Below are positions 1,300 through 55,460 of a stretch of 64,000 nucleotides of DNA, in pieces (the stretch's first letter is position 1; every line of letters begins with the position of its first letter). The DNA is from Candidatus Latescibacterota bacterium. GTDB lineage: Bacteria > Latescibacterota > UBA2968 > UBA8231. Made by a program: the position numbers and the translations under genes. The notes below the pieces were generated by a model, which was not told where the DNA came from, did no database searches, and worked only from the letters and a program-made list of their open reading frames with translations. The DNA is taken from NCBI GenBank assembly GCA_029941565.1, contig JAPYRN010000003.1, forward strand, positions 107,358 to 171,357. Reading direction: 5' to 3'.

Positions 1300-2580
1300 A
1301 GGGTGGCTGCCTTCTTCTCGTCGATACGGAAACAGGCATACTGATTGTCATACATCAGTCCCGTGGCGACACCGATCGCCTGGTTTTCCGTCAATAGGCC
1401 GTCGTCGACTTCAGCCTCCAGGGCACGGGTCAGCCAACGACGCGCCTGGATGGCGTAGGCGACGGCACTGGTGGGCCAGCTGGTGTCGCCGCCGAAAGCA
1501 AAGAGCTTGTTCGCTGGTGCCGCGTGCAGAAAGCGACGCACGAAATCCATGCCGGAGTACGGGTCGATGGACCAGGCCCAGCAGAGATCGGCGTAGACAT
1601 TGCGGTAGTGTTTCGTCAACGCCAGCAGTTCCTGTGAATAGGGGTAGGCGATATGCATCAGCACGAAGCGGCAGTCGAGATATTTGGCGAGCAGTGTGCA
1701 GAGATTTCCAGCCTTGATCCGGCTGACCGGCATGCGGTCGGTGCCGGCGTAATATCCCGTGTGCAGCTTGAAGGGCAAGTCGTGTTCGATCGCCAGTTCG
1801 ATCCCGCGTGCCCAGCACCAATCGCCGAGGGCGAGGCGGGTCGTCTCATCGACATCCCCCCCGCGCAGGGTCGTCTGCAGAGCGGCGGCTGCTTCGGCAT
1901 CGCTGCGCTCTTGCCAGTTCAGCGTGCGGCTGTATGCGTGTTGTGCTTTAACGGCGATAGCGCGGTCCGCGTACTTGGCGAACAGGCCAGCCATCGCCTG
2001 ACGCAAGGTCGCCAGATCCGACACGGTGACACCTGTCTCCTGGGCCAAATTTTCCACATCGAGCTGACCATTGCAGAAGCCTGCCCAGCTGATATCGTAA
2101 AAGAAGAAGCCTGGGCCCGAGGCGTCGCTGACGCACGGCCAGCAGAAATCGTCCGTCTGACAATGATCGATGCCGCCGACCTCCTGCAGCAGCTGTCGGC
2201 GACCCCCTGGCTGTCGCCATTCGGTCAACTTGGACTGCGCTCCTGCCAGATCGGCGCCGCCCCAGTCAGGGCCCAGATCGTATACCTCGTCTGCAAGGAT
2301 GCCAACGGCTTCGCCGTACCCGGTAAAACGAATGGCCTTCCACGCCGACTCGATGGCGGCAAAACGCGTGGCCATGTCGCCAGCGGACGGGTCTGTCAGG
2401 TTGCCGACGGCTGCAGACGTGGCACCGGCGCTGATGAGGTCGGCGGGCACGTAGTTGGAGAACAGGTCGCTGAGCACGTCGGCGGGCCCTTCGTCAACCC
2501 ATTGGTTCTCTTTGCGCAGGTGCTCATGGGTGTCGACGAGCGGCTGGGACTGGATGTGTTCGCTGAGGTCGGAAGGCATG
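1296..2580 (-). CDS. Amidohydrolase-superfamily (TIM-barrel metal-dependent hydrolase) protein, translationally coupled to ilvD-family gene
   Basis: Track ORF 1296..2735(-). An N-terminal H-x-H motif (VDTHEHL) sits just after Met at 2580 (MPSDLSEHIQSQPLVDTHEHL), and FGGDTSWP lies near the C-terminus. Proposed start is ATG at 2580-2578; the alternative start at 2735 adds 52 aa with no homology signal. Confidence 0.6.
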
Positions 2581-2713
2581 GCTGAGGGCCTCGGAGTATT
2601 GAAGGGGTGGGCGATGTCGCAGGCAGGCTCACAGTAGCAGAGCGCGATGACCCCGTCAACCAGCACCTGTGCTGGCTTGCCGCCGGTCGTCGTCGCCGCT
2701 ACTGTCACAGGTG

Positions 2714-3139
2714 ATGCCTTGGCACCCGATTGCAATTCATTTTCCCATCGCCCTGCTCACGGCGGCCGTCGTCGTCGATGTGATCGCCGTGTTACGTTGC
2801 CGTGACAATGCCCTGCACCGGATCGCCTATGCCCTGTTGGTTGCAGGCACAATCGGCGCCGGCGCGTCGGTGCTCAGTGGCAATGCTGATGCCGCCGACT
2901 ATCGACAAACGCCTGTGGCGGCCGCCATCCAGGACCACGAGGATCTGGGAACGGCGACATTTCTCCTGTTTCTGATGCTGGTGCTGGCCCGGTTGCCCCG
3001 GATCCTGCGGCCACCGCCGAAGGTGGGCAAGGCATGGGTCTGGCTGCTACCCGCCGTGGTCGGGCTGGTGTTGCTCTTGTTTACCAGCTACCATGGGGGT
3101 GAGTTGGTCTACGTCAAAGGTGTTGGTGTCAATCACTGA
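2714..3139 (+). CDS. DUF2231-type integral membrane protein
   Basis: Track ORF 2669..3139(+). The likely start is ATG 2714 (MPWHPIAIHFPIALLTAAVVVD), followed by four predicted TM helices. Its end overlaps rpiA convergently. Confidence 0.55.
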   Translation: MPWHPIAIHFPIALLTAAVVVDVIAVLRCRDNALHRIAYALLVAGTIGAGASVLSGNADAADYRQTPVAAAIQDHEDLGTATFLLFLMLVLARLPRILRPPPKVGKAWVWLLPAVVGLVLLLFTSYHGGELVYVKGVGVNH

Positions 3140-16253: not shown

Positions 16254-17051
16254 ATGTCATTCCCGCGCACACTCCCGGAGGGATCTACGACGCTACCCGG
16301 TGTGGCCAACGTTGTCGCCGTCTCTGCCGCCAAGGGAGGCGTCGGCAAGTCGACGGTAGCAGTCAACCTGGCTCTTTCCATGGTGCAGGAGGGCGCGCGG
16401 GTGGGACTGCTTGACGCCGACATCTACGGCCCCAGCCTGCCCGTGCTGACGGGCGTCCGCGACGAACCAGAAGTCAGAGACGGCGACCGCATACAGCCGC
16501 TTTACGTCCATGACATGGCACTGATGTCGATGGGATTTCTCGCCGGGCAGGATGCCCCCGTTATCTGGCGCGGGCCGTTGTTGGCGCAGGCGGTGCAGCA
16601 GTTCCTGCAACAGGTCGATTGGGGTGAACTCGACATCCTTATTCTCGATATGCCACCGGGAACCGGCGACATCCCACTGACTCTGAGTCAGGCCGTTGCC
16701 ATGAGCGGAGCTGTCGTCGTCACGACCCCACAGAGTGTCGCGTTGCAGGACGTGGAACGCGGCATGGCGATGTTTGACAAGGTCGATGTCGATATTCTGG
16801 GCCTCGTCGAGAATATGAGCTACTACCTCTGTCCCACCTGCGACAAGCGCCATGAGATCTTTGGTCACGGTGGAGGTCGACAGACGGCTGAGCGCCTCGA
16901 TATCGATTTCCTCGGTGAGATTCCACTCGACGCGGCGATCCGCGAGGGTGGTGATCGTGGCGAACCGACGGTGCTCGCTGAACCGGAATCCCCGCGAGGC
17001 CAAGCCTTTGCCAGCATCGCGCGCGGAGTTGTAGCCGCGTTATCGGGCTGA
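16254..17051 (+). CDS. apbC: Fe-S cluster carrier ATPase Mrp/ApbC (NBP35 family)
   Basis: P-loop SAAKGGVGKST and a CPTC motif (YYLCPTCDKRHEIFG). Confidence 0.9.
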   Translation: MSFPRTLPEGSTTLPGVANVVAVSAAKGGVGKSTVAVNLALSMVQEGARVGLLDADIYGPSLPVLTGVRDEPEVRDGDRIQPLYVHDMALMSMGFLAGQDAPVIWRGPLLAQAVQQFLQQVDWGELDILILDMPPGTGDIPLTLSQAVAMSGAVVVTTPQSVALQDVERGMAMFDKVDVDILGLVENMSYYLCPTCDKRHEIFGHGGGRQTAERLDIDFLGEIPLDAAIREGGDRGEPTVLAEPESPRGQAFASIARGVVAALSG

Positions 17052-17070: not shown

Positions 17071-17469
17071 ATGCGCAGTTGGGCCCGACATCGATCACTC
17101 TGGATCCTACCCTTCGGCACGACCTGCTGCGCCGCTGATCTGGCGGCCGTTTTTGGCCCGGACCATGATCTGGGTCGCCTCGGGGCGCGCCTCGTCTACG
17201 AACCCGCTCAGGCGGACGTGCTCGTCGTCGCGGGACGGGTGACTCGGGCGCTGGCGCCCGAGTTGCGCCGGCTCTACGACGGCATGTATGAGCCCCGAGG
17301 AGTCATTGCATTTGGTGCCTGTGCGTGTACTGGGGGGGCCTGGGTGGGTAAAGAGGTCCCAGGGGGTGCTGATACCGTAATCCCCGTAAACACCTATGTC
17401 CCGGGCTGTCCGCCGCCCCCTGATGCTCTTGTACAGGCGCTCACCCAGGTCGTGGAGAGCTTTGCCTGA
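17071..17469 (+). CDS. Standalone NuoB-like [4Fe-4S] protein (NADH:quinone oxidoreductase 20-kDa subunit fold / [NiFe]-hydrogenase small-subunit-like)
   Basis: 132 aa. LWILPFGTTCCAAD...VVAGRVT...GACAC...YVPGCPP retains all four NuoB N2-cluster cysteine positions. No other nuo or hydrogenase genes are adjacent. Confidence 0.65.
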   Translation: MRSWARHRSLWILPFGTTCCAADLAAVFGPDHDLGRLGARLVYEPAQADVLVVAGRVTRALAPELRRLYDGMYEPRGVIAFGACACTGGAWVGKEVPGGADTVIPVNTYVPGCPPPPDALVQALTQVVESFA

Positions 17470-45241: not shown

Positions 45242-46429
45242 ATGAGGAGCAACATCACATTCCGTCAGTCCCTCATGCTGGCGCTGTTATGTATTTCGAT
45301 CGCTGGCTGTGGATCGACGATGCCCGCCGTCACCGATCTCTCCGAGATCCAGGAGGCACCCACACGTGGACCCATTCCGATGGATCCGCTGCGTCAGGCG
45401 TACACCGAGCGGGGTGGGTTCCCTGAATACATCATCGGTGCCGGCGACAAGCTCAAGTTGACGATGCGAGAGATACAGCTCACCAGCGAGATTGTCGTCG
45501 TCCGCCCGGATGGCAATATCTCCTTCGCCATGCTGGAGGATGTTCAGGCTGCGGGGCGCACGCCGACCGAACTTGACGATGATGTGACCAATCGCCTCGC
45601 CCAGTTCCTGCGATTCCCAAAGGTGGATGTTGAGGTGGAGGCCTACCAGAGCAAGAAGGTCTCCCTCCTCGGTGCCATCAAGACGTTGACGCGTGGTTCT
45701 GGTTCTCGTTCGGAGCAGTCGGGGCAGTCGGGGCAGGGGCGGTACTCGTTGAGGGGCAAGACCACGCTTCTCGATCTGATCCTCGAAGCGGGCGGCACGA
45801 CGCCAGATGGACAACTGGAGAATGTTCAGTTGATCCGCGCAGACAAGTCGTTTCGACTCGATCTGCGCAAGGTTCTGACTTCCGGCGTGCAATCGGACAA
45901 TGCCATCCTGCAGGGCGAAGATATCATCATCGTTCCCGGCACGAGTCTGCGCTCCAAGAAGGTCATCATTCTGGGCGAGGTGTTTCAGCCGAATGTCTAC
46001 ATGTTCGCCGACGATGCGCGCTTGATGGAAGCACTGTCACAGGCGGGTGGTTTCAATGCAGAGGCGTTGCGTGATGACGTTCGTCTGATCCGTGTTGTCG
46101 AGGGTAGTGGTCAGATGTACTCCATCAATTTCGAGCGTCTTGCCAATCATGGTGACTTGCGGCAGAACGTGGCTTTGAAGAATGACGACATCATCTATGT
46201 CCCGAGGAGTTTCATCGGCGATGTCAACGATGTCATCAAGAAGATCCAACCGTTGCTCAACATTCTGCTGCTGCCGGCGACGTATCGCGATCTCTATTCG
46301 ACCGGAGGCGGCCTGCGAATCGACACCGGGGATCCGGCCAGTTCGTCAGCGAGTTTCACGCGGACTTTGCCAGGGACGGCGAAACCAGCCGGTGATGGCC
46401 GTGATGATGAGGATGCAAGTGATGAGTGA
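45242..46429 (+). CDS. Polysaccharide export lipoprotein (Wza/Poly_export plus SLBB domains)
   Basis: Track ORF 45059..46429. Start ATG 45242 gives a lipobox (LLCISIAGCGS). PES motif region (GAGDKLKLTMREIQLTSEIVVVRPDGNISF) and soluble-ligand-binding beta-grasp repeats. Confidence 0.75.
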   Translation: MRSNITFRQSLMLALLCISIAGCGSTMPAVTDLSEIQEAPTRGPIPMDPLRQAYTERGGFPEYIIGAGDKLKLTMREIQLTSEIVVVRPDGNISFAMLEDVQAAGRTPTELDDDVTNRLAQFLRFPKVDVEVEAYQSKKVSLLGAIKTLTRGSGSRSEQSGQSGQGRYSLRGKTTLLDLILEAGGTTPDGQLENVQLIRADKSFRLDLRKVLTSGVQSDNAILQGEDIIIVPGTSLRSKKVIILGEVFQPNVYMFADDARLMEALSQAGGFNAEALRDDVRLIRVVEGSGQMYSINFERLANHGDLRQNVALKNDDIIYVPRSFIGDVNDVIKKIQPLLNILLLPATYRDLYSTGGGLRIDTGDPASSSASFTRTLPGTAKPAGDGRDDEDASDE

Positions 46430-47394
46430 TGGCTGAGCGCCGGCCGCCCGCCGCTGTGGACTCCATTCTGGATACGGTGGGCGCCACGCCGCTGATCGAG
46501 ATCCGCCGGATGCCAGCGAAGGGCTCGGCACGAATCCTCGGCAAACTGGAAGCCCTCAACCCAGCAGGCAGCGTCAAGGATCGGATCGGCCTCAGTATGA
46601 TCCGCGCTGCCGAGGCTGATGGCCAGTTGTGCTCGGGCATGACGATCGTCGAACCCACCTCGGGGAACACGGGGATCGCGCTGGCCATGGTCGCCGCGGC
46701 GTTGGGATATGATCTGGTGTTGACGATGCCCGATCACATGAGCAGCGAGCGGATTGCCGTGATGGCCGCCTATGGTGCGCACATCGAGTTGACTCCTTCC
46801 ACCCAGGACATGCCGGGGGCCATCCGTCGTGCTGAGCAGATCGTTGCACAGGATCCTGATCAGTACTTCATGCCACAGCAGTTTCGCAATGCTGCCAATC
46901 CACAGATTCACCGGCAGAAAACGGCGCGTGAAATCGTCGCTGCCACGGCGGGCCGGATCGACGCCTTTGTTGCCGGTGTCGGGACGGGGGGCACGATTAC
47001 CGGTGTCGGCTCGGTGTTGAAGCAGGAACTGGCCAATGTCCGCATCGTCGCCGTGGAACCCTCGCGCTCTGCCGTACTCACAGGTGGGGTGGCCGCCGTG
47101 CACGGCATCCAGGGAATAGGCGCGGGTTTCGTACCTCAGGTCCTGGATCGCGACGTGATCGATGAGGTCATCACCATCGACGATGAGGACGCCTTCTGCT
47201 GCACGCGGGCGCTCGCACGTGAGGAGGGACTGCTGCTGGGTCCTTCCTCAGGCGCGAATGTGGCGGTGTCGATGCGCGTCGCTCAGGCTCTCGGCCCGGC
47301 AGCGACTGTGGTCACCATCCTCAGCGATACGGGCTTTCGTTATTTCAGCGTCGATGGTTTTATCGACGACGCACCCACGGGCACAGCTACCTGA
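46426..47394 (+). CDS. cysK: Cysteine synthase (O-acetylserine sulfhydrylase)
   Basis: PLIEIRRM...LEALNPAGSVKDRIG...TSGNTGIALA...GVGTGGTITG. Confidence 0.88.
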   Translation: MMAERRPPAAVDSILDTVGATPLIEIRRMPAKGSARILGKLEALNPAGSVKDRIGLSMIRAAEADGQLCSGMTIVEPTSGNTGIALAMVAAALGYDLVLTMPDHMSSERIAVMAAYGAHIELTPSTQDMPGAIRRAEQIVAQDPDQYFMPQQFRNAANPQIHRQKTAREIVAATAGRIDAFVAGVGTGGTITGVGSVLKQELANVRIVAVEPSRSAVLTGGVAAVHGIQGIGAGFVPQVLDRDVIDEVITIDDEDAFCCTRALAREEGLLLGPSSGANVAVSMRVAQALGPAATVVTILSDTGFRYFSVDGFIDDAPTGTAT

Positions 47395-50505: not shown

Positions 50506-50589
50506 TTTTTTGGCTTTTCGTTCTCGACTGAGCAAGGCAATGCACTCCGCTATGGGGAGAGTGTGGCTGTTAGACGCATCAACCGAGCT

Positions 50590-51428
50590 TTCGTTGCACG
50601 TCTCAGGTCAACAAAGCTTCGATGACAATGTCGTGCAGTTTGGGTCGCAGCTGCTGAAAGCCTCGGTCCCCTCTGTCCGGGTGCACACGATTGGTGAGCA
50701 GGATCACGTAAAGATCCAGCTTCGGGTCGATCCATAGTGACGTGCCAGTAAACCCGGTGTGGCCATACGCTGCGATGGAGAAACGACTGCCGGAGGGTCC
50801 GTCCGCGCCGGGTTTCTCCCAACCAAAAGCACGATTTGAGTCTGCAGGGGATCGTCGATAGGAGCGTACAACTCACCGGCACGGATCCCATCGAGGCGAT
50901 CACCTCCCAGATGCTCTAGCAGATCGCCGATGAGGATAGGGCTGATGTCGCTATACACCGTCTGTTGACCCGACGCACCTGACAATGGCGCTTGCAGGAA
51001 TCGCTGCATGGCGGCGCGCCGCCATGCGTTGCTCCACTCGAGTCCGGTGCCGTATCCCGTCGCAGGCGAAGCCCGGATGTCAGTCCTGCGGCGCGGCACA
51101 TGAGCAGCCGCACGGTGAGGGCCCGCTTGTTTTCAGGGTAGTAGTCCGGCAACAGGTCGCCGATGGGGGCATCGACATCGAGCTGACCTGACGTCGCCCA
51201 TTTCATGGCCAACCAGGTTGTGGCCAGGACCTTGGTAAGTGACGCCAGGTCATACAGCGTCGTCGACGTCAGGGGCCGTACCGTCGGTGTGATCTGCGCT
51301 TGACCGATCGGAATTTCGTGTCGCCCGCCAGCGCTACGAGCAGCGATCAGCGTGGCACCTGCCAAAATGCCATCGTCAACGGCATTGCGCAGCGCCGCAT
51401 CGACGTGTAAGAAAGGGTAGGAATTCAC
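50590..51428 (-). pseudogene. Beta-lactamase-family serine hydrolase (class C/esterase-like) split across three frames
   Basis: Frame 1 reads TLYDLASLTKVLATT (S-x-x-K) ...LTVRLLMCRAAGLTSG. Frame 2 reads YGTGLEWSN...YSDISPILIGDLLEHLGGDRL. Frame 3 reads GSRFSIAAYGHTGFTGTSLWIDPKLDLYVILLTNRVHPDRGD...KLHDIVIEALL. Confidence 0.55.
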
Positions 51429-51441
51429 GGTAATGCTTTCG

Positions 51442-51470
51442 TTGACACTCCTATGGGGGCTGGTTACATT
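51442..51470 (+). promoter_or_regulatory. Sigma-70-type promoter TTGACA-N17-TACATT upstream of the merR-like gene
   Basis: TTGACA at 51442-51447 and TACATT at 51465-51470. A palindrome ACGTCAcTTGACGT (51490-51503) lies in the 5' UTR. Confidence 0.4.
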
Positions 51471-51517
51471 CGCCTAAATACGGGAAGATACGTCACTTGA
51501 CGTCCCCCGCCTCAACA

Positions 51518-51979
51518 ATGCAGATCGGTGACCTGGCAGAACGCGCCGGTGTCTCGACGCGCACCATCCGTTACTATGAAGAGCTCGGTCTCGTCGAGCC
51601 CATGGAACGGACCAATGGCGGTTTTAGACGCTATTGCGAAGATCAGTTGCGGCGACTGCAGATCATCCAGGGCCTCAAATGTCTGGGCTTCGATCTGGAA
51701 CAGGTCAGGCATCTGTTCGCCTTGCGCGACAAAGCTGAGACCGGTGGTGATCTGGCACGGCAAATGATCGATATCCTGCAGACGCAGCAGCAGGAGATTG
51801 ACGCCAAGATCGCCCAGTATAAAGAACTGCGCGAGCGCAATCGTAGTGGTATCGATGTCTTGCGGGGCTGTCTATGCTGTCGCATTAAGGTTTTTGAGCG
51901 TGACTGCCACAACTGCGAATCGTATCAGTGTCATGACGAGGTCCCCGATCTCGTCGAGTGTGCCATTTTTGGCGGCTAG
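51518..51979 (+). CDS. MerR-family transcriptional regulator with Cys-rich C-terminal tail
   Basis: Track ORF 51497..51979. Start ATG 51518 (MQIGDLAERAGVSTRTIRYYEELGLV). Coiled-coil dimerisation region, then GCLCCRIKVFERDCHNCESYQCHDE (6 Cys plus 2 His). Confidence 0.8.
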   Translation: MQIGDLAERAGVSTRTIRYYEELGLVEPMERTNGGFRRYCEDQLRRLQIIQGLKCLGFDLEQVRHLFALRDKAETGGDLARQMIDILQTQQQEIDAKIAQYKELRERNRSGIDVLRGCLCCRIKVFERDCHNCESYQCHDEVPDLVECAIFGG

Positions 51980-51990
51980 GGGATTAGACC

Positions 51991-52323
51991 ATGCTGACCG
52001 TTTCTGAAGAGGCCTGCACCAAGATCCTCAGCCTTCTCGAACAGGAGAAGCCACAAGGTGGTGCGCAGCGGGGCCTGCGTGTCGCCGTCAAGGGCGGTGG
52101 CTGCTCCGGCTTTCAATACAAACTTGATTTCGAGGACGAACCGGGGGATATGGACCAGGTCATCGAGTCCAATGGTGTGCGCATATTCGTCGATCCCAAG
52201 AGCAGTCTTTATCTCAATGGCGTCATTCTGCGATATGATGACGGCTTGATGGGAGCCGGTTTCCAGGTCGAAAATCCCAATGCGCGCACAACCTGTGGCT
52301 GCGGCGAGTCCTTCAGCATCTGA
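51991..52323 (+). CDS. A-type Fe-S cluster carrier (HesB/IscA/ErpA/SufA family)
   Basis: GGGCSGFQY...TCGCGESF; 110 aa. Confidence 0.85.
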   Translation: MLTVSEEACTKILSLLEQEKPQGGAQRGLRVAVKGGGCSGFQYKLDFEDEPGDMDQVIESNGVRIFVDPKSSLYLNGVILRYDDGLMGAGFQVENPNARTTCGCGESFSI

Positions 52324-53554
52324 GCCGCCCGATCTCGATCCTTCGGGTGGCGGTCCCGCGACCCCGATCTATCTAGACCATCTTGCAACGACACCCCTGG
52401 ACCCACGGGTCCTGGAGGTGATGTTGCCGTATCTCCGTGAGAATTTTGGCAATCCTTCCAGCCGCACCCACGATTTCGGTCTGCATGCCGCCGCCGCTGT
52501 CGAGGCCGCGCGCGGCCATGTGGCAGCACTTGTTGGGGCGACGGCGAGAGAGGTCGTCTTTACCAGCGGCGCAACGGAAGCGAACAACCTGGCGATCAAA
52601 GGGACCTGTGCCGCCTGGGCCGGCCAGGGCGCTCACCTGGTAACCTGCGCGACCGAGCATCATGCCGTGCTCGACGTCTTCGACAGTCTGGAGCGTTCCG
52701 GACAAGGGTTCCGGGTTACCCGCGTCGCTGTGGATCACCAAGGGATCATCGACCTACCCGCCTTGGCGGCAGCCCTCGACGACGAGGCGCGCCTGCTGTC
52801 GGTGATGGCGGCGAACAACGAAACAGGCGTGCTACAACCCCTGGAGCAGATCGCCCGTTGTCTGCAAGGCAGGAACGTGATCTGGCACTGTGATGCAGCG
52901 CAGGGGGTGGGCAAGATTCCGCTCGACTTGCGGCGAATTCCTATCGATTTGCTGTCCCTGTCGGCACATAAGATGTATGGCCCTAAAGGGCAGGGCGCGT
53001 TGTTCGTGCGCCGCCGCCGCCCACCACTGCGACTGGCCGCCCAAATCGAGGGTGGCGGCCAGGAACGGGGGCTGCGATCGGGGACGCTCAACGTCGCTGG
53101 CATCGTCGGTCTGGGTGAAGCTTGCCGTCTCTGCCAACAGGAGAGAGCACCTGAGGCTGAGCGGCTCACGCAACTGCGCGACAGCCTGCAGCAGTGCCTG
53201 GTCCACGCCTTCGGCGCCGCTGTGGTCGTCAACGGCGGGGCAGCGGTACGATTGCCAAATGCGCTCAATGTCTCCTTCCCCGACAGCCACGTTGCCGAAC
53301 TGCTGCCCCGTCTTCGTGACGTCGCGCTGTCGTCAGGATCTGCCTGTTCATCCGGCGCCGATACGCCTTCCCATGTGCTGGCTGCCATGGGTCTGGATGT
53401 GGCGACGGCAGCGGCATCACTGCGTTTCGGTCTGGGTCGAACGACCACTTTGGAGGAAGTGGAATGGGCAGCTAGACGAGTAATTACCGAAGTACGCTCT
53501 TGCGGTAAGCGACAGCGTCCCTACGTTTTTAGTCTCAAACCAAATCAACCCTGA
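52280..53554 (+). CDS. Cysteine desulfurase (NifS/IscS class I aminotransferase-V fold)
   Basis: IYLDHLATTPLDPRV...SGATEANNLAIKG...LSAHKMYGPKG...SSGSACSS. The start overlaps the iscA-like gene; GTG 52295 is also possible. Confidence 0.88.
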   Translation: MRAQPVAAASPSASEPPDLDPSGGGPATPIYLDHLATTPLDPRVLEVMLPYLRENFGNPSSRTHDFGLHAAAAVEAARGHVAALVGATAREVVFTSGATEANNLAIKGTCAAWAGQGAHLVTCATEHHAVLDVFDSLERSGQGFRVTRVAVDHQGIIDLPALAAALDDEARLLSVMAANNETGVLQPLEQIARCLQGRNVIWHCDAAQGVGKIPLDLRRIPIDLLSLSAHKMYGPKGQGALFVRRRRPPLRLAAQIEGGGQERGLRSGTLNVAGIVGLGEACRLCQQERAPEAERLTQLRDSLQQCLVHAFGAAVVVNGGAAVRLPNALNVSFPDSHVAELLPRLRDVALSSGSACSSGADTPSHVLAAMGLDVATAAASLRFGLGRTTTLEEVEWAARRVITEVRSCGKRQRPYVFSLKPNQP

Positions 53555-53569
53555 GCGGGAGAAGGCATC

Positions 53570-54760
53570 ATGGCTCTGACATCGAGCCAGCTTCTCGAAG
53601 AAGTCAAGAAGTCAATCAAAGAGGTTACTCCTGACGACGTCAGGCGCGGGCTGCAGTCCGGTGATATCCAGCACGTGATCGACGTGCGCGAGCGCGACGA
53701 AGTGATGGACGGATATATCCCCGAAGCGCATCTGATTCCGCGCGGCTTTCTCGAACTGAATGTCGAAGAGGATGTGTCGATGGATCGCAGTGAGTCCATC
53801 GCCCTCTACTGTGCCGGCGGCAATCGTTCTGCCTTGGCGGCGCGTGATCTGATCGCCATGGGTTACTCGAACGTGAGTTCCATGATCGGCGGCATCAAAG
53901 GCTGGAAGGACGCGGGTCTGAAGATCCAGACCGGCGGGTTGCTGACAGAAGAGGACATGCAGCGCTACTCACGGCATCTCATCCTGCCGGAGGTCGGCGA
54001 ACAAGGCCAGCAGAAGCTGTTGCAGGGCAAAGTGCTCCTCATCGGCGCCGGTGGTCTCGGATGCCCGACGGCCCTCTACCTGGCTGCGGCGGGCATCGGC
54101 AAGATCGGTCTCGTCGATGCGGATGTCGTCGACAAGAGCAACCTGCAGCGCCAGGTGCTGTTCGGTGAGAGTGATGTGGGCCGGCCCAAGGTCGAAGTCG
54201 CACGCGAACGTCTCCTGGACCTGAATCCGGGAATCGAGATCGTCGCGCACCACGATCTGATGACATCGCACAATGCCTTCGACATCATGGCAGACTACGA
54301 TATCATCGTCAACGGCTGCGACAATTTTCCGACGCGGTATCTGGTCAATGATGCGGCGGTACTGACTGGCAAGCCAGTCGTCGATGGCAGCATCTTCCGC
54401 TTCGAGGGTCAGGCGACGGTGTATGACTCCGCCGCCGGCGGCCCATGCTACCGCTGCCTGTATCCGGAGCCGCCGCCCCCCGGTGAGGTCCCCAGCTGCT
54501 CAGAAGGTGGTGTTCTGGGCGTATTGCCGGGTACCATCGGGTTGGTGCAAGCCACAGAGGTGGTCAAGCTCGTACTGGGCAAAGGGGAGCCGCTCGTAGG
54601 TCGCATGCTTCTCTACGATGCGCTGGATATGAAATTTCGCGAGCTCAAACTACGACGCAACGCCGAGTGCCCCGTATGTGGTGATGCACCCACGGTGAAG
54701 GAGTTGATCGACTACGACATTTTCTGCGGCTTGCCGGGACATTCTGAGGCTGCAGGCTGA
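53570..54760 (+). CDS. Rhodanese (N-terminal) fused to MoeB/ThiF-type E1-like adenylyltransferase
   Basis: Rhodanese with active-site YCAGGNRS; ThiF domain with GAGGLGCP nucleotide motif, catalytic Cys (SCSEGGVLG) and CxxC...CxxC zinc site. Confidence 0.8.
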   Translation: MALTSSQLLEEVKKSIKEVTPDDVRRGLQSGDIQHVIDVRERDEVMDGYIPEAHLIPRGFLELNVEEDVSMDRSESIALYCAGGNRSALAARDLIAMGYSNVSSMIGGIKGWKDAGLKIQTGGLLTEEDMQRYSRHLILPEVGEQGQQKLLQGKVLLIGAGGLGCPTALYLAAAGIGKIGLVDADVVDKSNLQRQVLFGESDVGRPKVEVARERLLDLNPGIEIVAHHDLMTSHNAFDIMADYDIIVNGCDNFPTRYLVNDAAVLTGKPVVDGSIFRFEGQATVYDSAAGGPCYRCLYPEPPPPGEVPSCSEGGVLGVLPGTIGLVQATEVVKLVLGKGEPLVGRMLLYDALDMKFRELKLRRNAECPVCGDAPTVKELIDYDIFCGLPGHSEAAG

Positions 54761-54818
54761 GAAGACCAACCTCCGTCAATCCAACCGACGCCACACGACG
54801 TGACTGGGGCGACCATCT

Positions 54819-55460
54819 GTGGGTGGTCGCCCCTTGTTCGTTGACCTCCAGACAACGGGAACCGCAGTGAGTTCATCCTTGCTGATACAGCTCGACGAAG
54901 AATCGGACGACGATCCGATCCTGAATCTGGCGACCTTTTTTGCCAATGATCACCCTATTGAGGTCGAACTCGGCTTCGGCAAGGGCAGATTCCTGCTCGA
55001 TGCCGCCCAGCGTCGACCGGCGCACAACTTTATCGGTGTCGAAGTCGCCAGCAAATACCTTCGCCTTGCCCACGGCCGGGCCCGTAGGCGGGAGCTGCAA
55101 AATTTGCGGTTCATTCATGGGGACGCTCGTGAATTCGTCGAATTTTTCGTCCCCGCCGAGTCGGTGCACGCCGTGCACGTGTACTTTCCTGATCCCTGGC
55201 CCAAGAAGAAGCATCACAAGCGTCGCCTCATCGACGCGGGCTTTCTCTCCGAGGCGTGGCGCATTCTCCAGCCAGAAGGGCGGCTGTGGATCGCCACCGA
55301 CCATGACGAGTATTACGAGGTGATCCTGGAGGCATTTGAATCTTTCGACCAGCACTTCGACCTGATCGAGGCGCCATGGAATGGGGTGACGACGAACTAT
55401 GAGGACAAGTTCGTCAGTCTGGGGAGCACCATTCACAGGCGTATTGTGGCAAAAATCTGA
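54819..55460 (+). CDS. trmB: tRNA (guanine46-N7)-methyltransferase
   Basis: IEVELGFGKGRFLLDAA...FIGVEV...VYFPDPWPKKKHHKRR. Confidence 0.88.
   Translation: MGGRPLFVDLQTTGTAVSSSLLIQLDEESDDDPILNLATFFANDHPIEVELGFGKGRFLLDAAQRRPAHNFIGVEVASKYLRLAHGRARRRELQNLRFIHGDAREFVEFFVPAESVHAVHVYFPDPWPKKKHHKRRLIDAGFLSEAWRILQPEGRLWIATDHDEYYEVILEAFESFDQHFDLIEAPWNGVTTNYEDKFVSLGSTIHRRIVAKI

Follow-up and report, generated by a model that had tools for sequence, protein, structure and literature searches.

A MerR-family protein with a conserved Cys4 loop at the head of an iscA-nifS operon in Latescibacterota: a probable new class of regulators of iron-sulfur assembly

What kind of regulator is encoded by the first gene of an operon for the assembly of iron-sulfur (Fe-S) clusters when that gene belongs to the MerR family? 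What is understood of the regulation of Fe-S assembly comes mainly from a small number of model phyla, through IscR, a member of the Rrf2 family, and through SufR. The question is raised by a locus in "Candidatus Latescibacterota" (positions 107,358 to 171,357 of contig JAPYRN010000003.1; this whole stretch of 64,000 nucleotides is referred to below as the window), where a MerR-type gene with a cysteine-rich tail precedes the genes for an A-type Fe-S carrier, a cysteine desulfurase, and a rhodanese-MoeB fusion protein. Judging from sequence comparisons, this protein probably represents an undescribed class of Fe-S assembly regulator. With a probability of roughly 0.55, it is an autoregulated MerR-family regulator that senses occupancy by an Fe-S cluster or a metal and follows a logic similar to that of IscR and SufR.

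The locus is a single compact transcription unit on the forward strand (positions 51442-54843) that consists of a promoter, four open reading frames (ORFs), and a terminator:

51442-51470, + strand: predicted sigma-70-type promoter, with the -35 hexamer TTGACA at 51442-51447, a 17-bp G/C-rich spacer, and the -10 hexamer TACATT at 51465-51470 (10 of 12 consensus matches)
51490-51503: perfect palindrome ACGTCA-ct-TGACGT, a candidate operator in the 5' leader, spanning approximately +14 to +27 relative to the inferred start site of transcription
51518-51979, + strand: MerR-family regulator, 153 aa (Pfam PF13411, PF00376, PF09278)
51869-51916, + strand: codons of the CxxC-x8-CxxC loop (C118, C121, C130, C133) within the regulator gene, from three homologue alignments
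51991-52323, + strand: A-type Fe-S carrier (IscA/ErpA-like), 110 aa (PF01521, TIGR00049)
52280 (ATG) or 52295 (GTG) to 53554, + strand: class-I (IscS/NifS-type) cysteine desulfurase (PF00266, Aminotran_5, E = 2.7e-72)
53570-54760, + strand: fusion of rhodanese (aa 20-114, PF00581) and MoeB/ThiF adenylyltransferase (aa 133-369, PF00899)
54806-54833, + strand: hairpin resembling an intrinsic terminator, with 9 G-C pairs in its 12-bp stem and a T-rich tail to 54843

The initial annotation described these genes as a gapless operon, and the distances agree with this description: merR and iscA are separated by 11 nt, iscA overlaps the desulfurase gene, and 15 nt lie between the latter and rhd/moeB. 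The four genes are predicted to form one transcription unit, bracketed by one promoter and one terminator. Both promoter hexamers are invariant in an alignment of promoters from the window clade. Alignment of homologues places the start of the regulator at ATG 51518; their N termini rule out the upstream TTG 51497.

The assignment of the first gene to the MerR type is borne out by Pfam, which detects MerR domains with E values of 4e-18, 2.6e-15, and 6.9e-09 (the winged helix-turn-helix [HTH] families PF13411/PF00376 and the dimerization family PF09278). Residues 1 to 112 make up a typical MerR module of the metal-sensor type. Only MerR-type models are matched in Pfam and NCBIfam, with no Rrf2 or SufR domain. 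The top NCBIfam matches are ZntR, CueR, MerR, CadR, and SoxR, all of them far under cutoff, so that no equivalog above its cutoff claims the protein: the ZntR, CueR, CadR, and MerR models score 49 to 75 bits against cutoffs of 143 to 244 (ZntR, 70 to 75 against 143 to 168), and the SoxR model TIGR01950 scores 54.5 bits against 116.9. The nearest solved structures are those of MerR, CadR, PbrR, and CueR, both in a profile search of PDB (E = 1e-17 to 1e-21) and in Foldseek (E = 4e-07); Foldseek also matches the SoxR structure 2zhg. A profile search with the tail alone finds nothing significant among solved structures or Pfam families.

An AlphaFold2 model built from 29 homologues has a mean predicted local distance difference test (pLDDT) score of 90.8, with values of 84 to 89 in the tail. 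It shows the dimerization helix at residues 76 to 118, with no Cys at its start (A-E-T-G-G), and beyond it a loop and two short helices. The helix ends with C118, and C121, C130, and C133 lie in the loop that follows, at the pLDDT values of the tail. In CueR, ZntR, and SoxR, the effector loop that holds the metal or the cluster sits directly after the dimerization helix; in the model, the Cys4 loop occupies this canonical position.

The tail sequence, GCLCCRIKVFERDCHNCESYQCHDE, is exactly as quoted in the initial annotation, which had read it as a Cys6His2 ligand set. That set did not survive comparison with homologues, as only four of the cysteines are invariant. A first search found 396 homologues, and the best 120 of these share 56 to 94% identity across their full length and belong to Latescibacterota-type metagenome-assembled genomes, some labeled Gemmatimonadetes. 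In the Latescibacterota-type alignment, C118, C121, C130, and C133 are invariant and form the pattern CxxC-x8-CHxC; C120, C138, and C148 vary, and H131 and H139 are nearly invariant, but only inside the Latescibacterota clade. Scans of genome and metagenome contigs yielded distant relatives (31 to 42% identity) from Syntrophobacterales, Thermodesulfobacteriota, Sericytochromatia, a Bdellovibrio sp., and unassigned contigs, all with the four cysteines at identical spacing and a hydrophobic C-terminal helix. Altogether, the fixed-spacing Cys4 motif is invariant in at least eight clades from several phyla. A profile search of 1.84 billion representatives clustered at 50% identity gave 153 matches at E <= 1e-30; the strict motif C..C-x8-C..[C/H] is present in 109 of the 149 best representatives and a looser version in 122 of them. 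The Cys4-tailed proteins form a large, diverse, and unnamed MerR subfamily. Some of its members carry the label "Zn(II)-responsive regulator of zntA" from the Joint Genome Institute (JGI) pipeline.

The genes next to these regulators give the subfamily its likely function. Among the Latescibacterota-type loci with enough sequence, to which the following statements refer, MerR-IscA-NifS is present in all, usually followed by Rhd/MoeB and then by TrmB and MraZ, and this synteny is retained over a range of protein identity that reaches from 99% to as low as about 58%. The initial annotation had named beforehand, as observations that would count against it, orthologous operons without the regulator and a tail that is not conserved; the orthologous operons retain the regulator, and the tail is conserved. 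The conservation extends to only part of the four-gene unit, however, as a sister lineage (L004 to L006) has MerR-IscA-NifS-TrmB and no Rhd/MoeB. Because these loci keep the first three genes without it, Rhd/MoeB, the thiocarboxylate-forming enzyme, is an accessory component.

Outside Latescibacterota, the downstream partners change. In a Bdellovibrio-like clade, the regulator gene is followed by genes for a three-domain NifU and for NifS, down to 53% regulator identity (L034, L125, L173, and L174). The locus L103 has the order MerR-SufB-SufC-SufD, and L167 and L168 begin alike. MerR-IscA is found in L096 and L100, with a NuoB-like gene next in L096. An Fe-S assembly gene lies immediately downstream of the tailed MerR gene in about 4 of 10 clades, and three non-homologous machineries are involved. 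Since genes for Fe-S assembly account for well below 1% of a genome, an adjacency of this frequency, and with three machineries, is not reasonably due to chance; nor is it simple inheritance of one ancestral arrangement, since the partners differ between clades. This repeated linkage is the strongest evidence for the proposed functional tie between the regulator and Fe-S assembly. The view that an ordinary MerR regulator lies upstream by happenstance and controls unrelated genes, although some clades do have unrelated neighbors and the palindrome alone is statistically unremarkable, is very improbable given the 11-nt gap to iscA with a single promoter and a single terminator, the synteny that persists even where protein identity has dropped from 99% to about 58%, and the independent juxtaposition with NifU-NifS, SufBCD, and IscA-NuoB.

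In the proposed mechanism, the Cys4 loop would be occupied by an Fe-S cluster, or by iron, that the Fe-S assembly machinery of the cell supplies. The regulator would be the first gene of the operon that it controls, merR-iscA-nifS-rhd/moeB, and occupancy of the loop would alter its binding to DNA at its own promoter; expression of the A-type carrier, the desulfurase, and MoeB would thereby track the demand for Fe-S clusters or sulfur. The cofactor-loaded form would repress, and loss of the cofactor would relieve the repression. The gene order, the operon limits, the conservation of the Cys4 motif, the repeated linkage to Fe-S genes, and the operator-like dyads of relatives are shown by the sequences, whereas we infer which cofactor is bound, whether the regulator represses or activates, and which element of the window is its operator.

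The sign of regulation is suggested by the promoters. Classical MerR-activated promoters have spacers of 19 to 20 bp (PMC11672702, section 3.2.3). The best sigma-70-like promoters predicted upstream of 36 tailed-MerR genes have a 17-bp spacer in 22 cases; 5 others have 18 bp and 3 have 16 bp, so that 30 of the 36 fall between 16 and 18 bp. The window promoter, too, has a 17-bp spacer with no dyad inside instead of an over-long one of 19 to 20 bp with a dyad operator. Many clades have an ACGT-based dyad centered in the middle of the spacer of the MerR promoter:

L096, mid-spacer: TTGACGT-ac-ACGTCAA, a perfect 7-2-7 dyad (promoter sequence TTGACGTacACGTCAA)
L004, mid-spacer: TTAACGT-tt-ACGTTAA (promoter sequence TTAACGTttACGTTAA)
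L011 to L015, mid-spacer: CTTACGT-tc-ACGTCAAG
L146, mid-spacer: ATCTTACGTTAACGTGAGAT
Bdellovibrio-like clade, mid-spacer: ACATTAACGTTAATGT

In nine loci, ACGT-N2-ACGT occurs once per whole locus of 7 to 16 kb, and every time this copy is in the middle of the spacer of the MerR promoter. The near-optimal 17-bp spacers, together with dyads placed across the core promoter or after it, suggest that the DNA-bound form represses and does not activate by the classical untwisting of DNA. By analogy with IscR and SufR, repression by the cofactor-loaded protein is favored here. The residues of the wing and recognition helix (R38 or L38; S13 or T13) could not be tied to the operator type, as the correlation is not clean.

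For the window itself, inspection of the 17-bp spacer reveals no dyad, and attention turns to the 5' leader, where the palindrome reported in the initial annotation does exist. It lies downstream of the -10 hexamer and is the sole dyad there, as well as the sole exact match in the window. Its half-sites, TGACGT and ACGTCA, are the same as in L096 but everted (ACGT-N6-ACGT). The palindrome is intact in L087, has one change in L007, L008, and L088, and is absent in relatives with 62 to 67% identity (L009, L089, and L093). Taken alone, it is not significant, because by our estimate a leader of about 76 nt has a chance of roughly 9% of containing a perfect 6+6 palindrome. It might be the operator, and the odds lean somewhat against this tentative assignment. 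As a regulon-wide motif, the palindrome was rejected: the window has no further good matches, and matches with mismatches occur at chance level. An RNA element in the leader was likewise rejected, with no Rfam match and with folding no better than that of shuffled sequences (z = -0.09). A separate observation concerns L090, which has neither an ACGT dyad nor the window palindrome and carries another perfect palindrome of 12 bp, CACGGCGCCGTG, some 40 nt upstream of the -35 hexamer of its MerR promoter. Operators seem to differ between subclades.

Several points weigh against an Fe-S- or iron-sensing repressor. The CxxC-x8-CxxC arrangement would suit a zinc site, structural or sensory, just as well, and the profile of the tail alone matches zinc ribbons such as those of L32 and Nop10, though weakly and without significance (E values of 0.2 to 1). 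Promoters and spacers are called solely by their agreement with the consensus. The window clade has a G/C-rich spacer with no mid-spacer ACGT dyad, and the leader palindrome is retained only where the regulators are 88 to 99% identical and the whole leader is conserved. Finally, other clades of the subfamily are without Fe-S neighbors and have next to the regulator HEAT-repeat and HD-domain genes, a MoxR ATPase, a 258-aa ORF, or nothing obvious.

Paired CxxC motifs can hold zinc, iron in the manner of rubredoxin, or a [4Fe-4S] cluster, the last exemplified by NreB (Cx2Cx11Cx2C). The main alternative, unlikely as we consider it, is that the four cysteines form a zinc site or a zinc-thiolate redox switch, which would sense zinc or thiol oxidation and induce Fe-S repair and sulfur mobilization under oxidative or disulfide stress. 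The two CxxC knuckles do resemble a zinc ribbon, as in the weak L32 and Nop10 matches, the N-terminal 110 residues are closest to the divalent-metal sensors ZntR, CadR, and PbrR, and the JGI label of some members points the same way. However, the protein misses every metal-sensor equivalog cutoff by a wide margin, lacks both the Cys at the N terminus of the dimerization helix and the CCx3Hx4C loop (motif as in PMC11672702), and has no efflux-pump or heavy-metal gene adjoining its operon. The linkage to three non-homologous Fe-S systems better fits an Fe-S-related signal, although it is compatible with a redox switch that acts on Fe-S repair.

The downstream enzymes bear on a second alternative. 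The A-type carrier passes the cutoff of TIGR00049 (118.8 bits against 58.8), remains under the equivalog cutoffs of ErpA (114 against 117 bits), IscA, and SufA, and has canonical Cys ligands (GGGCSG ... CGCG). The desulfurase has its pyridoxal phosphate-binding lysine in SAHK and its catalytic cysteine in SSGSACSS, and it is also below the equivalog cutoffs (IscS, 451 against 548 bits; NifS, 399.5 against 530.75). In the fusion protein, the rhodanese active-site loop CAGGNRS is kept, and the MoeB domain has both CxxC pairs. The initial annotation correctly noted that rhodanese is N-terminal to MoeB, the reverse of the MoeZ/MOCS3 order, but the arrangement is not unusual. The fusion is a full-length match, above the cutoff, to the NCBIfam model NF006444/PRK08762 "MoeB" (535.4 bits against 449; residues 6 to 387 aligned with 4 to 384 of the 387 profile positions), so the "reversed" order is already catalogued and does not represent a novel architecture. 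The MoeZ model NF005902, with the domains in the opposite order, gives 413 bits and thus stays below its cutoff of 647.

These enzymes could suggest that the unit is mainly a sulfur relay for thio-cofactors (thiocarboxylates of the MoaD, ThiS, or TtuB type that serve molybdopterin, thiamine, or tRNA thiolation) and that the regulator tunes sulfur flux. The complete catalytic motifs of the full-length PRK08762-type fusion encoded 15 nt after the desulfurase gene, the retention of Rhd/MoeB in most Latescibacterota loci, and the presence of trmB, a tRNA methyltransferase gene, as the next gene are in line with this. Nevertheless, such a relay is improbable as the main role: no ThiS/MoaD-like ORF, and no NifU/IscU or SufB/D, is found within the window, which extends the earlier remark that no ThiS/MoaD/TtuB-like carrier gene is adjacent; L004 to L006 drop Rhd/MoeB and keep MerR-IscA-NifS; the A-type Fe-S carrier is always present; distant regulators head NifU-NifS or SufBCD genes without MoeB; and a terminator separates moeB from trmB. 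The persulfide-to-thiocarboxylate relay that the initial annotation read from the operon is not its conserved core; the common theme is Fe-S assembly, with NifU-NifS, SufBCD, and IscA-NuoB in other phyla.

If an Fe-S- or metal-sensing regulator is the correct reading, the subfamily might extend it considerably. Cys4-tailed proteins would then be widespread master regulators of Fe-S biogenesis beside IscR and SufR, with a [2Fe-2S] or [4Fe-4S] cluster in the effector loop, acting as loaded repressors at promoters with 17-bp spacers and recruited independently by different phyla to operons of the NIF, A-type-carrier/ISC, and SUF types. We regard this broader proposal as possible, at slightly less than even odds.

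Some members of the subfamily and their neighbors stand out. Three proteins of 261 to 263 aa (P0121, P0137, and P0139; loci L171:2155-2940 and L172:1182-1967) consist of a tandem pair of MerR HTH domains with a single CxxC-x8-CxxC tail, and each is encoded next to an OmpW-like gene; these are possibly single-chain pseudo-dimers. A conserved ORF of 258 to 260 aa with no Pfam match is found 19 to 26 nt after the tailed MerR gene in L146 (562-1338) and L154 (4142-4924) and may encode a partner of the Cys4 MerR family. In a Syntrophobacterales locus (L017), a 276-aa ORF (2223-3053) is located upstream of the tailed MerR gene, at a distance of about 3 kb; positions 2535 to 2786 within it give a 38% match to the ThiF/MoeB part of the window fusion, and its N terminus looks ThiS-like by eye.

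Elsewhere in the window, downstream of hrcA-grpE-dnaK-dnaJ, an Fe-S carrier ATPase of the Mrp/ApbC/NUBPL type (16254-17051) is followed by a short stand-alone NuoB-like ORF (17071-17469, PF01058), both on the forward strand. In L096 (859-1762), where IscA and a NuoB-like gene come after a tailed MerR gene, the NuoB-like gene is 45% identical to that of the window, and both times the NuoB-like gene lies beside an Fe-S carrier.

The genes that flank the operon include trmB, the next gene after the hairpin. Its longest ORF (GTG 54819) begins within the terminator hairpin, and homologues align only from residues 18 to 21 of this ORF, so that the actual start is probably GTG 54867 or TTG 54879. Downstream of trmB is the mraZ-rsmH-ftsL-ftsI cell-division cluster, which has its own promoter. 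A beta-lactamase-family gene on the reverse strand (50550-51428), divergent from the MerR promoter, is split into overlapping ORFs of 170, 131, and 117 aa, and its syntenic counterpart in L004 is one 368-aa ORF; the broken gene could be due to frameshifts, represent a pseudogene, or reflect assembly errors. About 4 kb upstream of the operon is a PALP-family (cysteine-synthase-like) gene (46426-47394, + strand), which is also near the operon in L001 (5542-6492). This gene might provide the desulfurase with cysteine, or its position might reflect mere synteny.

A 2024 review of bacterial metal sensors includes no Fe-S assembly regulator among unconventional metal-sensing MerR proteins and cites MliR as the only MerR-like iron regulator. 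MliR was considered as a prior description of the present family and ruled out, as it is a different, Cys-less protein. A literature search, which left most subscription journals outside, found no report of a MerR regulator with a Cys tail that controls the assembly genes nif, isc, or suf. What appears to be new here is the sensor loop on a MerR protein and the proposed type of regulon, whereas the MerR family and the PRK08762 fusion are already known. If the proposed role is correct, these proteins would represent an independent evolutionary answer to the problem of feedback in Fe-S assembly and would extend Fe-S sensing in the MerR family past SoxR. More than 100 sequence clusters with generic names, or wrongly annotated as zinc-responsive regulators of zntA, would then receive a specific name.

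Comparison with known systems places the operon among several of them. The fusion protein shares its expected chemistry, adenylation and persulfide transfer, with MoeZ, MOCS3, and Uba4, and the domain order is the opposite in MoeZ and MOCS3. Residues 1 to 112 of the regulator are closest to ZntR, CadR, PbrR, and CueR, with NCBIfam scores of 64 to 75 bits; however, the metal-binding loops differ, and the tail has no counterpart in solved structures. MliR is a MerR-superfamily regulator tied to iron homeostasis in the Fibrobacteres-Chlorobi-Bacteroidetes (FCB) group; it has no cysteines and no effector domain, whereas a Cys4 loop is the defining feature of the present family. With IscR and SufR, the proposed likeness is one of logic: in each case the gene of a Cys-ligated sensor is the first in, or next to, the Fe-S operon that it controls. 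This is a functional analogy only, as the folds of IscR (an Rrf2 winged HTH protein with three Cys and one His as ligands) and SufR (of the DeoR/ArsR type) are unrelated to that of the window regulator.

A precedent for an Fe-S cluster sensor on a MerR scaffold is SoxR, a [2Fe-2S] redox sensor with the motif CX2CXCX5C. SoxR shares with the window regulator both the fold and the position of the Cys4 loop straight after the dimerization helix. The motif of the window regulator is CX2CX8CX2C, however, and is followed by an extra C-terminal helix. SoxR activates soxS or efflux genes from promoters with a 19-bp spacer, whereas the tailed MerR proteins are associated mostly with predicted 17-bp spacers and would have Fe-S assembly genes as their targets.

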